Virus record (IMG/VR): IMGVR_UViG_2541047813_000005
Coordinates: 1-40,559 of that record
DNA: 40,559 nucleotides
Reading direction: 5' to 3' (one strand)
DNA from: a virus
Taxonomy: Duplodnaviria; Heunggongvirae; Uroviricota; Caudoviricetes
Below the pieces are notes generated by a model. The model was not told the DNA's origin and ran no database searches. It worked only from the letters and a program-made list of their open reading frames with translations. This document shows, piece by piece, positions 32,281 to 37,764 of this stretch (position 1 is its first letter; each line of letters opens with the position of its first letter). The position numbers and the translations under genes are program-made.

Positions 32281-33081
32281 TTACTTGATAAATCCTGCCG
32301 CCTTTCCCCGCTTGTATTCCTCCATCAGCCACTGCGCTGGTGTTATTCCCCCAAGGGTGGCGGCGTTAGGCATGCACCCGAAACTTCGCCCTGGTGGATG
32401 GTAAACGTCTCTCCCTGTGTCCGGAGGTGTACTCATGGGTTCTGGCTTTGCCTGTATGCTGATCACCGGATCGGGTATCTGCTGTCCGGAAGCCACCTTT
32501 TTCGCCCAATCATCGAGCAGCCTGCGCGCGTGTTTCTCAACCTCAATCTCGCTAAGCTGGCGCTGATACATTGCACGGCGGGTATCACATACGACCCAGT
32601 ACATAACCGGATGTCGCCACGGGAATCTTTCGGGACCACCAGGATATAAACTTTTTTCCTTGCTGTACCGGTGAAACTCCGCCATCACATCGTCAATGGT
32701 GACGCCAAGAACCATCTTGCTGTCTTTACACCACTTGATGAATTGCCCTGGCGACGGCCAGAACGGAGATTCACTGGCGCGGGCGTGGCGCATACCAGCA
32801 GAAACCTGTTCACGGGTACGTATTCCCCCTTCGGCAAACGCAGCAATCCACTGCTGTTTTGCAGCAACTTCCTGCTCTGGCGTCTTCAGGTTGGTTACCA
32901 CTGCCGCCGGAAACAGTTGTTTCAGCTGTTTGAAAAGGGCATCAACAAGCCTCTCTGCTGACATGTTCACCACATTGTCATTGTTGACGTACTGATGCTC
33001 ATAACCTGACATGCGAGAAAGGGCTTCTCCGTCACGGTTTTGTATCGCGGTAAAAACGTTGTTCACAAGAAATCCTCCCAC
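32281..33081 (-). CDS. Replication protein P-like (helicase loader)
   Basis: 266 aa; 'GMRHARASESPFWPSPGQFIKWC' closely parallels lambda P 'GMRVARRQNRPFLPSPGQFVAWC' (from memory). Confidence 0.75.
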   Translation of the reverse strand: MGGFLVNNVFTAIQNRDGEALSRMSGYEHQYVNNDNVVNMSAERLVDALFKQLKQLFPAAVVTNLKTPEQEVAAKQQWIAAFAEGGIRTREQVSAGMRHARASESPFWPSPGQFIKWCKDSKMVLGVTIDDVMAEFHRYSKEKSLYPGGPERFPWRHPVMYWVVCDTRRAMYQRQLSEIEVEKHARRLLDDWAKKVASGQQIPDPVISIQAKPEPMSTPPDTGRDVYHPPGRSFGCMPNAATLGGITPAQWLMEEYKRGKAAGFIK

Positions 33082-33860
33082 GCTTCAGGGCTGTTCCAGT
33101 GCGGAACGTTGTTATCAGGTAATGTTGATTGCTTCTGTCTGCTAATCTGCAGCCGCCTTGCCAGCTTCTGCTCCCACTGTGCCTGATGGTATGCCTTACC
33201 CTCAGCCATCCAGTAAATTCTGAACTCTGCAAGTTCCTGTGCCGTTGGCAGACTGTCCAGGTAGATCCCCTGCAATGAGCTTTTCCGAAGAAAGTCATCT
33301 GATGGGTGCCATTGTTCATGCATGACAAATTTGCCTAATTGCCCTGGCCCACCAGGAGGAACAAAGTTATTCATCACGGCGTTGTTTGCGCCGGGGTCAT
33401 GAGGCACAGAATCCCCGGTTTTTGTCCTGCTCTCCCTCTCTTGGTTAAATGACTGGTTATATGACTGGTTCTGGATCCCGTTTTTGGGATCATTCAACAT
33501 CCCGTTTTTGGGATCATTCAACATCCCGTTTTTGGGTATATTCCCGTTTTCGGGTTCATTATCCCCTTCCCGGTTGCCTTTAATGTTCCCGTTTTTGGTT
33601 ATATTAAGAGAGAAAACCCGCACTCTTTTCGTCGCTCCCTTTCTCTCTCCGGTATCTGAAATAAGCCCCATTTTCATGAGCGATATAAGTCCGGCCTGCA
33701 CGGTTTTTTTATTCAGGCAAGTGTCTTTAACGAGGCGTTCTATGCTGGGGTAGCAGAGGTTATATTCATCGGCTCTGTCAGCCATCGAGAGCAGTATGAG
33801 CTTTAATGACGAGCTACCTGGATCTGTCTCCCAGGCCCAATCTGTTGCATGTCTGCTCAT
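33063..33860 (-). CDS. Replication initiator (lambda O-like) with internal origin iterons
   Basis: 265 aa; N-terminal HTH-like region; direct DNA repeats inside the gene encode 'NDPKNGML' repeats; precedes the P-like gene with overlap. Confidence 0.65.
   Translation of the reverse strand: MSRHATDWAWETDPGSSSLKLILLSMADRADEYNLCYPSIERLVKDTCLNKKTVQAGLISLMKMGLISDTGERKGATKRVRVFSLNITKNGNIKGNREGDNEPENGNIPKNGMLNDPKNGMLNDPKNGIQNQSYNQSFNQERESRTKTGDSVPHDPGANNAVMNNFVPPGGPGQLGKFVMHEQWHPSDDFLRKSSLQGIYLDSLPTAQELAEFRIYWMAEGKAYHQAQWEQKLARRLQISRQKQSTLPDNNVPHWNSPEAWEDFL
33449..33607. repeat. Iteron array (putative replication origin)
   Basis: Two perfect 24-bp copies 'atcccgtttttgggatcattcaac' (33475..33498, 33499..33522) plus degenerate copies with core CCCGTTTT(T/C)GG; preceded by 2x 'atgactggtt'. 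Confidence 0.65.
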
Positions 33861-33875
33861 GATTAATCTCCGCTA

Positions 33876-34076
33876 TCAGCTTGAATGTTGTGGGGAGGAA
33901 TTAATCATGATCTGCTTAATCTCTGCCCTGATACGACGGTTTGATTCCATGGTGCACTCAACACAGTGTCCGTTGTAAACCCAGCGTTCACTGTCATGTC
34001 CGTGCTTACATGTTTTTCCGGTGTAGTAGCGTTTAAGTCCGCGCTTTGCGGCATCAATACGTGTAATGATTTCCAT
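33876..34076 (-). CDS. Small zinc-ribbon-like protein (hypothetical early regulator)
   Basis: ORF 33876..34139; likely start at Met 34076; 'CKHGH...NGHCVEC' Cys/His cluster. Confidence 0.4.
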   Translation of the reverse strand: MEIITRIDAAKRGLKRYYTGKTCKHGHDSERWVYNGHCVECTMESNRRIRAEIKQIMINSSPQHSS

Positions 34077-34156
34077 GGTAAGACCTGTTATTAGTATTGG
34101 GATTACGGTTATTTTGTGCTGACACAAAAAAAAGATCAACCAGATTTGGTTATTTA

Positions 34157-34180: not shown

Positions 34181-34205
34181 TGAAAAGACCGCCGGGTGGC
34201 GGTCT
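34181..34205 (-). terminator. Hairpin after cro-like gene (weak terminator, tR1-like position)
   Basis: agaccgcc-gggt-ggcggtct hairpin followed on minus strand by UUUCA. Confidence 0.35.
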
Positions 34206-34226
34206 ACAGAGGGTTGTAGCTGGATA

Positions 34227-34457
34227 TCATGAGTAGAAGAAGTATGCCAGTTCTGCTTTTGAGCGCAGCCATTGTCTTGTTTTACAGGCTTTAAAAAGCC
34301 CATTCATCAATACTTTACCTGGCATTTTGCGCTTACCTGTTAAGTGAGTCTGGATATAGTGACTCGTCGTTCCGGCTTCCTGTGCGAAGGCTTCACGCTC
34401 ATCCGGAGTAAGTGCAAGCCAGTGCTTTTTGAAATCGAAATGTCCGTTATCGCTCAT
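34227..34457 (-). CDS. Cro-like HTH regulator
   Basis: 76 aa; HTH-like 'EAFAQEAGTTSHYIQTHLTGKR'; divergent from repressor-like gene across an operator-rich region. Confidence 0.55.
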   Translation of the reverse strand: MSDNGHFDFKKHWLALTPDEREAFAQEAGTTSHYIQTHLTGKRKMPGKVLMNGLFKACKTRQWLRSKAELAYFFYS

Positions 34458-34493
34458 AGCTATTGCCTGATATTTATTTCAGATAATAAATAT

Positions 34494-34556
34494 TCACCCA
34501 TAAGGTAACAAAAATCAAGGATAGTTACCCATGAGGTGCATTTACCTGTTGGGTAA
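34494..34556. promoter_or_regulatory. Immunity-region operator cluster (three TTACC-N5-GGTAA-type dyads) with divergent promoters
   Basis: Sites 34494..34508 (TCACC-cataa-GGTAA), 34525..34539 (TTACC-catga-GGTGC), 34542..34556 (TTACC-tgttg-GGTAA) between the cro-like and repressor-like starts. Confidence 0.5.
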
Positions 34557-34611: not shown

Positions 34612-35196
34612 ATGAAAAGTATCCAGGACGTCCGCAGGCAAAATCTCAACGACTTGATCGACCGTGAATTCAATGGTGTTCAGACGCGGATGGCAGAAAA
34701 ACTTGGAACTCAGGCAAATCTGGTAAACCGCTGGGCTCTTGGCAAGAAGGTTATCGGCGACCAGGTTGCACGAAAAATTGAAGCTGCCGCCAATAAACCC
34801 CGTAACTGGCTTGATATCGATCGCTCGCTTTCTCAGGAAGGTTTTCAGCCTGTCGGCCCAAGCGACATTGGTCAGCTGGCGGCTCACAACCTGGAACGCT
34901 GGATGAGCGAAAGCCGCGACCTTTCAACGCAGGGAAAACTTCACCGCGCATCCGGCGTCGCCCAGGTGACAATCAGCCGCCTGTTAAACAATGAGGTCAG
35001 CGTTTCCATTTCCACCCTGGAGAATGTTGCATCCGCATTCGGGCGTCATGGCTATGAATTACTGATTCACCCGCACGACCCTGCGACTATCAACTATGAC
35101 CGCTCGCGCTACGCATTGTTACCCGAAACCGAGAAAGCAAAGATCGAAAGTTACATTGAATTTGTCATCAACCAGAACGAAAAAAACAAACAATAA
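34612..35196 (+). CDS. Repressor-like DNA-binding protein with two HTH-like regions (candidate phage repressor)
   Basis: 194 aa; 'QTRMAEKLGTQANLVNRW' and 'ASGVAQVTISRLLNNE' HTH-like segments; no obvious S24 peptidase motif. Confidence 0.55.
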   Translation: MKSIQDVRRQNLNDLIDREFNGVQTRMAEKLGTQANLVNRWALGKKVIGDQVARKIEAAANKPRNWLDIDRSLSQEGFQPVGPSDIGQLAAHNLERWMSESRDLSTQGKLHRASGVAQVTISRLLNNEVSVSISTLENVASAFGRHGYELLIHPHDPATINYDRSRYALLPETEKAKIESYIEFVINQNEKNKQ

Positions 35197-36826: not shown

Positions 36827-37764
36827 GCAACGACATCGCAAACATCAACGCACCAGTAGACACAGCAATCGCTGGAACTGCTGCAACTATTTTCAGCCCA
36901 GACGGCTTGAACCAACTGATGAAATTCGCCGAGGTAATGGCGCAAAGCCGCGTAACGGTACCGGCGCACCTCGCCGGGAAACCAGCTGATTGCATGGCCG
37001 TGGCAATGCAGGCTGCGCAGTGGGGAATGAACCCGTTTGCCGTTGCTCAGAAAACCCATGTTGTGAACGGCACGCTAGGTTATGAAGCCCAATTAGTAAA
37101 CGCAGTTATCTCAACGATGTCGCCAACAAAAGATCGCATCAACTACGAGTGGTTCGGGCCGTGGGAACGCGTGATCGGTAAGTTTGTTGAGAAAACATCC
37201 AAAAACGGCAATCCATATATCGCACCAGGCTGGACTCTAAAAGACGAAGAAGGCTGCGGTGTTCGCGTATGGGCAACCATGAAGGGCGAGGATCAACCTC
37301 GAGTGCTTGAGTTAATGCTGTCTCAAGCACAGGTAAGAAACTCCACACTTTGGGCCAGTGATCCGAAACAACAACTCGCATACCTTGCGACAAAACGCTG
37401 GTCTCGCTTGCACTGTCCTGACGTAATCATGGGCGTCTACACACCAGACGAATTACAGGAAACGGCACCGCGCGTTGAGCGAGACATTACTCCGCAAACA
37501 ACTACTGCTGCGGGAATGAACAGTCTGATCAACGCTAAACCAGTGAAAAAGCCTGATGAGCAAACTCGTAAAGCGGATAGCCGTGATCCAGAAGAAATGC
37601 TGATGGCCTTTACCAGCGCAGCGATGAATTACAGCACTGTCTCCGAACTGGATAAGGCTTACAAATACATTGCACAAAAACTTTCAGATGATGACGAACT
37701 GCTGGCAAAAGCCACCGACGTTTACAGCGTTCGTCGGGAAGAATTAAACGAAACATCTATGTAA
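36823..37764 (+). CDS. Single-strand annealing protein, Bet/RecT family
   Basis: ORF 36796..37764; start ATG 36823 (ATGA overlap); 'GMNPFAVAQKTHVV' and 'ERDITPQ' resemble lambda Bet (from memory). Confidence 0.7.
   Translation: MSNDIANINAPVDTAIAGTAATIFSPDGLNQLMKFAEVMAQSRVTVPAHLAGKPADCMAVAMQAAQWGMNPFAVAQKTHVVNGTLGYEAQLVNAVISTMSPTKDRINYEWFGPWERVIGKFVEKTSKNGNPYIAPGWTLKDEEGCGVRVWATMKGEDQPRVLELMLSQAQVRNSTLWASDPKQQLAYLATKRWSRLHCPDVIMGVYTPDELQETAPRVERDITPQTTTAAGMNSLINAKPVKKPDEQTRKADSRDPEEMLMAFTSAAMNYSTVSELDKAYKYIAQKLSDDDELLAKATDVYSVRREELNETSM

Follow-up and report, generated by a model that had tools for sequence, protein, structure and literature searches.

A repeat array inside the initiator gene of a phiV10-like phage is probably the initiator-binding part of its replication origin

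The virus record IMGVR_UViG_2541047813_000005 of IMG/VR (40,559 bp, analysed over its whole length and hereafter referred to as the window) comes from a phiV10-like temperate podovirus of the genus Uetakevirus. Its minus strand carries a gene for a predicted replication initiator, and within the coding region of this gene lies an array of direct repeats (iterons), followed by a block of shorter repeats and by a helicase-loader gene of the lambda P family. Lambdoid initiators each carry their own iterons within the coding region (PMC8022706; PMC7466680), and an original prediction, made by reading the window's letters, had proposed that the array marks a lambda-type origin inside an O-like initiator gene. 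Here we describe the array and the protein, compare both with their relatives in phages, prophages and plasmid records, and weigh the origin reading against other explanations.

All five occurrences of CCCGTTTT(T/C)GG in the 40.5-kb window fall in one stretch of 122 bp (33477-33598). A scan of all 40,559 bp with the core CCCGTTTTYGG returned five exact matches and one further match, at 37199, with one mismatch, and none of 100 dinucleotide shuffles reached six core matches. The top-scoring tandem repeat that Tandem Repeats Finder detects in the window spans 33475-33536, with a period of 24, 2.6 copies, 100% matches and a score of 124; the program also lists 33442-33470 (period 12, 2.4 copies). 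Copies of 24 nucleotides (nt) located by a repeat search at 33475, 33499, 33523, 33541 and 33586 are 100, 100, 75, 75 and 67% identical to the reference copy, bearing out the predicted set of two perfect and several degenerate 24-bp repeats; two of the five units are perfect, and two to three 12-bp units (AACCAGTCAT) adjoin them. The decamer atgactggtt is present twice, as had been noted (33449-33458 and 33461-33470), but it does not precede the iterons: the gene lies on the minus strand, so that these 12-mers follow them in gene orientation. The proposed extent of 33449-33607 does fall inside the gene, although its end is better placed at 33601-33609 and an additional half-site lies at 33410-33427.

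Read on the coding strand, all units are 16-bp palindromes in which ATCCC and GGGAT half-sites flank AAAAAC (ATCCC-AAAAAC-GGGAT). The units read, in order, TAACCAAAAACGGGAA, AACCCGAAAACGGGAA, TACCCAAAAACGGGAT, ATCCCAAAAACGGGAT and ATCCCAAAAACGGGAT, with quality rising toward the promoter-distal end, and the last iteron is the best palindrome throughout the family. The array region belongs to the minus-strand open reading frame (ORF) 33063-33860, which encodes 265 amino acids (aa), and translates into (N)DPKNGML repeats (including ...NIPKNGMLNDPKNGMLNDPKNGIQNQSYNQSFNQ..., also given as ...TKNGNIKGNREGDNEPENGNIPKNGMLNDPKNGMLNDPKNGIQNQSYNQSFNQ...), in agreement with the predicted NDPKNGML linker. 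The array, made up of the five sites (33475-33601) and the half-site, starts at aa 88, directly past the winged helix, as do the repeats of an ori-lambda-type origin. CCC and GGG are the rarest proline and glycine codons of the phage (9% and 17%, respectively), and the cores use CCC at four of four proline and GGG at five of five glycine codons. Neighbouring iterons can also pair, GGGAT with the next ATCCC followed by T5, giving terminator-like hairpins antisense to the gene at 33485-33504 and 33509-33528 on the plus strand. The antisense hairpin score probably arises as a by-product of the half-sites being palindromic; the inter-iteron hairpins could nevertheless block antisense transcription, or form a cruciform or hairpin on unwinding.

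The initiator consists of three parts: an N-terminal winged-helix domain of the HTH_36 family, the repeat-encoded linker and a C-terminal DnaT-type domain. Pfam places HTH_36 (PF13730) at aa 18-67 (E = 1.7e-10; 41 bits versus a cutoff of 25) and DnaT (PF17948) at aa 178-246 (E = 4.6e-15; 55.5 bits versus a cutoff of 25), and aa 174-259 match the solved DnaT chains 9zbt, 6aep and 4ou6 of the PDB with E values from 3e-20 to 3e-18 (phmmer). The DnaT-type domain is presumed to contact the loader, single-stranded DNA or both. No Rep_3-type family is found among the Pfam matches of the initiator, and the iterons lie within its gene, unlike those expected for an iteron-plasmid Rep protein. An AlphaFold2 model computed from the initiator sequence alone was uninformative (mean predicted local distance difference test score of 37).

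The relationship of this protein with lambda O is remote. BLASTP found no match between the two, and hhalign against single sequences gave weak probabilities of 4% and 11%. In a comparison of profiles, a 41-sequence N-domain profile aligned with a nine-sequence profile of PF04492 (Phage_rep_O) N-domains, drawn from nine phage records, with 87.5% probability and E = 3.6e-6 over 48 columns (the helix-turn-helix plus the wing), in a fold whose families cross-match easily. The alignment lays initiator aa 39-86 on lambda O 71-118, a segment that ends at lambda iteron 1. An IMG/VR search with the N-half of lambda O was unusable for building a profile, as all but two of its 80 loci were 100% identical, and those two 99%. 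The N-halves of the initiator and of lambda O both match PHROGs 678 and 345, whereas PHROGs 2357 and 277, which represent the lambda-O C-domain, are matched by GF-2 and not by the initiator, which thus shows no lambda-O-type C-domain. Distant homology with lambda O is probable for the DNA-binding core and the origin design, to judge from these profiles. The name 'O-like' given to the gene in the original prediction is justified only by position, architecture and remote profile similarity; in Pfam terms the protein is HTH_36 plus DnaT and not a member of Phage_rep_O.

To follow the array beyond close relatives, we used a GTDB survey with one genome per species, which comprised 74 evaluable homologues with 23-81% full-length identity to the window protein. 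An array, defined as at least four copies of a 10-mer (at most one mismatch) in the 330 bp after the N-domain, was present in 60 of the 74, as against 4 of 501 control windows taken from these loci. The copies are spread over two or more reading frames in 53 of these 60 arrays, where they are spaced, for example, by 17 and 22 nt, and a single DNA motif is read as PKNG, QKR(N/D/E) or PKTE among distant relatives. It is therefore the DNA that has been conserved and not the peptide, and a purely peptide-level repeat is ruled out for the family. Since all close relatives carry the array as well, the repeats are a regular component of the initiator genes of related phages, as the origin reading demands.

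The same survey links the array with one part of the protein. HTH_36 was found in all 73 scanned proteins (that of the window and 72 relatives), and their C-domains were assigned to DnaT in 7, to Phg_2220_C in 5 and to DnaA_N in 2, the rest being unassigned. Relatives that share the N-domain only (36-54% identity), namely PPompW prophages, Edwardsiella GF-2, Acinetobacter AP22 and Vibrio anguillarum phages, have arrays of the same type in the same place; in GF-2, the HTH_36-type N-domain and its iterons are joined to a lambda-O C-domain, with P next. Conversely, the Salmonella phage SPN1S and the Enterobacter phage Tyrion, which belong to the same genus as the window phage, share the DnaT-type C-domain only and have unrelated N-termini, and no repeat array is detectable in the gene of either. 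The origins of these two phages must be organised differently; SPN1S is also without a P-like gene downstream. The array tracks the N-domain and not the C-domain, and thus accompanies the winged helix, as one would expect if it contains the binding sites of that domain. As indirect evidence, such linkage suggests that the N-domain of the initiator may bind the iterons specifically.

Known origins were compared next. Among nine PF04492-type initiators, including lambda O and P22 gp18, eight have iteron sets made of inverted half-sites around (C/G)AAAAC(G); no dyad is evident in the P22 iterons (ATCGGTAAAAC-type). In most of these nine phages, ACAAAAGACA-type repeats of about 12 nt come after the iterons, and in several a GC-rich palindrome lies beyond. 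In its sequence design, the window's array matches the classical lambdoid iteron. The annotated lambda iterons are ATCCCTCAAAACGAGGGA, ATCCCCTAAAACGAGGGA, ATCCCTCAAATTGGGGGA and ATCCCTCAAAACAGGGGG; in both phages, the iterons lie inside the initiator ORF directly past the N-terminal DNA-binding domain, with ATCCC-TCAAAACGA-GGGAT in lambda and ATCCC-AAAAAC-GGGAT in the window sharing an A-rich AAAAC centre, at a spacing of about 18-24 bp and in the same reading frame (IPQNEG in lambda, DPKNG in the window). In both, moreover, a P-family loader gene is next, and the module is located downstream of a gene in the cro position. The proposed lambda-type arrangement, with the origin inside the O-type gene, is thus recovered in its essentials: dyad-symmetric iterons directly past a DNA-binding domain, and a lambda-P gene behind them. 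However, the N-domain of the window protein is HTH_36 rather than Phage_rep_O, its C-domain is of the DnaT type rather than the lambda O type, its half-site spacer is 2-3 bp shorter, and three 12-nt AACCAGTCAT units replace the AT-rich block (27% GC) and the GC palindrome of lambda.

The sites also resemble those of phi80 gene 15, an initiator gene that contains at least four copies of the annotated gp15 binding site TTCCCGAAAACGGGAA, almost identical to AACCCGAAAACGGGAA and ATCCCAAAAACGGGAT of the window. The phi80 protein gp15 differs in aligning with the lambda-O-type N-domains of PF04492 (31% identity to lambda O), a family placement made by alignment, and the flank of its array differs too. 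The sites at 765-841 of the phi80 locus are near-identical to 33541-33556 of the window despite initiators of different Pfam families, which raises the question of cross-recognition or convergence. Gene 18 of P22 and of phage L likewise contains its own iterons (PMC8022706; P22 rep_origin annotation), and in P22 tandem repeats of about 12 nt follow them (ACAAAAGACAAT, twice), whereas gp18 belongs to PF04492, a DnaB-type helicase gene and not P comes next, and the iteron sequences differ. Within the HTH_36 group, 12-13-nt repeats follow the array in GF-2 and the Vibrio phages as in the window; AP22 has a weaker remnant, and in PPompW none was detected. These relatives depart from the window in what accompanies the winged helix: GF-2 has a lambda-O C-domain and P, AP22 a DnaB-type helicase, and the Vibrio phages domains of unknown kind. 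The literature searched held no characterised origin for GF-2, PPompW, AP22 or the Vibrio phages. Iteron plasmids (RepA, pi, TrfA) resemble the window in having multiple direct repeats, a winged-helix initiator and an adjoining unwinding element that contains repeats; unlike the window, they place non-palindromic iterons outside the rep gene, and in the window helicase delivery would pass through a lambda-P-type loader.

The 12-mer block that follows the last iteron is itself a family trait. It occupies the position of the AT-rich ACAAAAGACA repeats of lambda and P22, and 34 of 35 listed relatives with an in-frame CAGAAY anchor show CAGAAYC... and three 12-13-nt (G)AAYC units after the last iteron; in some relatives, a spacing of 13 and then 12 sets AGAACCA in two reading frames. 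We considered whether the DnaT domain specifically targets the 12-mers and rejected the idea, since these units are present in relatives with unrelated C-domains.

Among close relatives, the array is always kept, with in-frame gains and losses of units. Across 80 IMG/VR loci with a 99-100% identical N-domain, the 24-bp PKNGMLND unit is present in 1 to 5 copies and the 18-bp (P/T)ENGN(V/I) unit in 1 to 4 copies, and among phages with such N-domains the 12-bp unit is present in 2-3 copies. An 18-bp unit common to most relatives is missing from the window, BP9 is without one 24-bp unit and phiV10 has an extra 12-bp unit; the exact unit architecture of the window was unmatched among the 80 IMG/VR loci and seven phage relatives. 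The initiator ranges in length from 263 to 295 aa among these phages and up to 311 aa among near-identical E. coli proteins. Lambda (four iterons) and Stx phages (six iterons and an O protein 13 aa longer) vary likewise (PMC7466680). In YDC107_2 (CP025713.1) the initiator ORF is frameshifted, and several of the changes are one-base changes of A5 tracts in iterons (AAAAAA for AAAAA); these are likely homopolymer sequencing errors that fragmented the gene calls. A phiV10-type replication module also appears near the end of the BP9 record PP488543.1 (138 kb, Vequintavirus) and in PH444 (PP350014.1; 115 kb, unverified), which suggests chimeric assembly or prophage contamination rather than true gene content.

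Several plasmid records carry a module of this kind, a hint that it may replicate autonomously. NZ_CP148379.1, a circular E. coli plasmid record of 8,461 bp, encodes DicA/DicC-like regulators, YdaT, an initiator, a short P gene and apparent defence genes. Its initiator is 36% identical to that of the window, has the HTH_36-iteron-DnaT organization and contains CCCAAAAACGG three times within the gene, and the record, which looks like a natural analogue of lambda-dv, offers no further replication candidate among its ORFs of 90 aa or more. A similar Qin/Rac-like immunity-replication segment is contained in NZ_CP130688.1 (8.6 kb, linear record). Both small records may be genuine replicons, or they may have arisen by excision or during assembly. 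E. coli isolates from ducks account for two plasmid records of 41,027 bp, pHL15EC-2 (NZ_CP079771.1) and NZ_CP079768.1, which contain a 96%-identical initiator gene; pHL15EC-2, the one inspected, is circular and phage-genome-sized and has the local gene order of the window. These records may represent a phage genome, in episomal form or in replication, and not a plasmid.

The initiator gene (798 bp) is 95-97% identical to those of the Escherichia phages phiV10, phiv142-3, PAS61 and EC.W1-9, the first three of which are classified in Uetakevirus (epsilon15 group), the EC.W1-9 record being without a genus. The gene was found in 424 of 5,426 complete E. coli genomes, and in all eight E. coli rows inspected it bears the label 'DnaT-like ssDNA-binding domain-containing protein'. 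Along the minus strand, a divergent repressor-like gene is followed by a promoter-like site, a gene in the cro position, a terminator-like hairpin, a small ORF, the initiator, the lambda-P loader and a DUF1064 gene (Table 1). Promoter and terminator counts in the scans did not exceed the shuffled expectation, and these two features serve as context only; transcription starting at the early-right promoter-like site would cross the array. The loader gene lies immediately downstream of the initiator, as in an ori-lambda-type module, and its start overlaps the initiator stop codon (GTGA), in accordance with the phiV10 annotation and with translational coupling of the loader. The small ORF (33876-34139, minus strand), between the terminator-like hairpin and the initiator, is in the position of lambda cII; it is annotated with 66 aa in phiV10, has the Cys/His-rich motif CKHGH...CVEC, and matches PHROG 1081 (function unknown), with weak similarity to an endonuclease VII PHROG.

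Table 1. Features of the replication region, in window coordinates
Feature	Coordinates	Strand	Basis or remark
Iteron 1, promoter-proximal, degenerate, TAACCAAAAACGGGAA	33586-33601	minus	Repeat search, core scan
Iteron 2, AACCCGAAAACGGGAA	33541-33556	minus	Repeat search, core scan; near-identical to phi80 TTCCCGAAAACGGGAA
Iteron 3, TACCCAAAAACGGGAT	33523-33538	minus	Tandem Repeats Finder, core scan
Iteron 4, ATCCCAAAAACGGGAT, within a perfect 24-bp unit	33499-33514	minus	Tandem Repeats Finder, core scan
Iteron 5, last, best palindrome, GATCCCAAAAACGGGATC with flanking bases	33475-33490	minus	Tandem Repeats Finder, core scan
Three 12-nt units, CAGAACCAGTCATAT / AACCAGTCATTT / AACCAAGAGAG, candidate DNA-unwinding element	33440-33474	minus	Tandem Repeats Finder, period 12; role inferred
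Possible degenerate iteron or half-site past the 12-mers, GGACAAAAACCGGGGATT	33410-33427	minus	Conserved in close relatives as GACAAAAAACGGGGAT
Replication initiator gene, 265 aa	33063-33860	minus	ORF; PHROG 1032 'replication initiation protein', full length, E = 3.9e-106
Coding region of N-terminal DNA-binding domain (aa 1-87)	33600-33860	minus	Stops exactly at the first iteron
Coding region of DnaT-type C-terminal domain (aa 174-259)	33084-33341	minus	Pfam, phmmer versus PDB
Lambda-P family helicase-loader gene	32281-33066	minus	Pfam PF06992 Phage_lambda_P, E = 1.5e-56; PHROG 109, E = 3.7e-92
Early-right context upstream of the initiator	34186-34511	minus	
Terminator-like hairpin	34205-34186	minus	Terminator scan
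Cro-position gene	34457-34227	minus	
Promoter-like site	34511-34483	minus	Promoter scan
Repressor-like gene, divergent	34612-35196	plus	

Taken together, we consider it about 75% probable that the phage replication origin lies inside the gene of its own initiator, with the array as its initiator-binding (iteron) part. We infer initiator binding, the unwinding site, the loader contact and origin activity from the comparisons above, and the events at the origin might run as follows. Early rightward transcription would yield the 265-aa initiator, whose N-terminal winged helix, probably as a dimer, would bind the five or six ATCCC-AAAAAC-GGGAT sites to form an O-some-like nucleoprotein complex. 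This complex would stress the adjacent 12-nt-repeat segment (33440-33474) and favour its opening, and the DnaT-type C-domain would recruit the lambda-P-type loader with host DnaB onto the opened DNA. The 12-mer block is proposed here as the unwinding element, and this is the weakest part of the model.

Several observations weigh against this interpretation. The 12-mer segment is only mildly AT-rich (GC content of 0.40 at 33440-33474, versus 0.487 for the genome and 0.27 for the lambda block), no lambda-like AT-rich block was seen next to the array and no GC-rich palindrome is present after the 12-mers, so that the unwinding site is a guess. PF04492 gave no match to the initiator at E <= 0.01, nor to the N-halves of the initiator and three relatives at E <= 10, compared with 5.7e-36 for lambda O and 6.9e-38 for P22 gp18, and the hhalign match spans only the 48-residue core of an easily cross-matching fold. 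The repeat units of the lineage are all multiples of 3 nt (12, 18 or 24) in a single frame, and the window by itself cannot tell a peptide repeat from a DNA repeat. The plasmid evidence consists of database records of a distant relative, with an incomplete PLSDB gene table. GC skew, which we rejected as origin evidence, is uninformative because its cumulative minimum, which lies at about 34-35 kb and thus some 1 kb away from the array, coincides with the switch in gene orientation. The literature searched contained no experiment on the origin of this phage or its family. It likewise yielded no paper linking phiV10/epsilon15-type phages with iterons or an origin, a search that did not cover the original phiV10 and epsilon15 genome papers. 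In RefSeq, the phiV10 record is without a rep_origin feature in the array region, and the origin is unannotated in all database records examined.

Of the other explanations, the one that survives best accepts the initiator as the binding partner but assigns the sites mainly to control, whether autoregulation, copy-number control or handcuffing, or the exclusion of related phages, while opening and helicase loading take place elsewhere in the genome. A role of this kind would fit the lack of a convincing AT-rich unwinding element beside the array and the highly variable unit number, which a titration or control element would easily tolerate, and cloned lambda ori iterons inhibit related phages, as two reports describe (PMC3349717, PMC4488673). 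We nonetheless regard it as unlikely: the arrangement equals, point for point, the origins of lambda, P22 and phi80, in which in-gene iterons are the origin; the conserved 12-13-nt repeat block stands where those origins unwind; the window holds no other repeat cluster of comparable strength; and the mini-plasmid record carries an iteron-initiator-P module as its only replication module.

The array might instead be a peptide repeat made by slippage in a flexible, probably disordered linker rich in N, G, P and K, without a function at the DNA level and with the origin elsewhere. In-frame units of 12, 18 or 24 nt with a free copy number, as found in this lineage, are typical of tolerated linker repeats. 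This explanation is nevertheless very improbable in view of the survey, in which the motif runs through two or three frames and encodes different peptides in 53 of 60 distant relatives, and in which the presence of the array follows the DNA-binding domain and not the linker or the C-domain; in addition, the sites are palindromic and their cores use the rarest proline and glycine codons throughout. Least credible of all is a binding platform for another protein, of the host or of the phage, or a signal for recombination or packaging, since, although A-tract palindromes could suit other dimeric binders, the array co-varies in sequence and presence with the N-terminal winged helix across Enterobacterales, Vibrio, Acinetobacter, Pseudoalteromonas and others, with many C-domains and neighbourhoods, and none of the three DnaA boxes of the window, which shows no enrichment of them, lies near the array.

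Building on the iteron reading, a more far-reaching proposal can be made, which we regard as doubtful in its entirety: an initiator that unites two activities usually found apart, with a 'primosome-like' opening mechanism, combined with a mobile origin cassette tuned by unit number. In the PriA restart primosome, a domain with the DnaT-type fold is known to bind single-stranded DNA. In this proposal, the winged helix would build the iteron complex, and the DnaT-type domain would capture the opened strand of the 12-mers and pass it to P-DnaB, a 'primosome-like' route to origin opening that, if true, would be distinct from that of lambda O. The winged helix, the iterons and the 12-mer block would form a mobile cassette, of a design common to PF04492 phages, set upon many helicase-recruiting domains, and the hypervariable unit number would, if true, tune replication or incompatibility.

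The advance is incremental, because an origin of this kind is expected from the literature on modular lambdoid replication. It would provide a concrete origin for phiV10-type (Uetakevirus) phages and prophages of E. coli. phiV10 is in use as a reporter phage for the detection of O157:H7, and a defined origin would aid phage engineering, the construction of phagemids and dv-type plasmids, and the correction of a misleading annotation. More broadly, the family survey shows that the lambda design, with AAAAC-centred palindromic iterons in the initiator gene, extends well beyond the lambda-O family of Pfam, into HTH_36 initiators with many different C-domains in Vibrio, Acinetobacter, Pseudoalteromonas and others.

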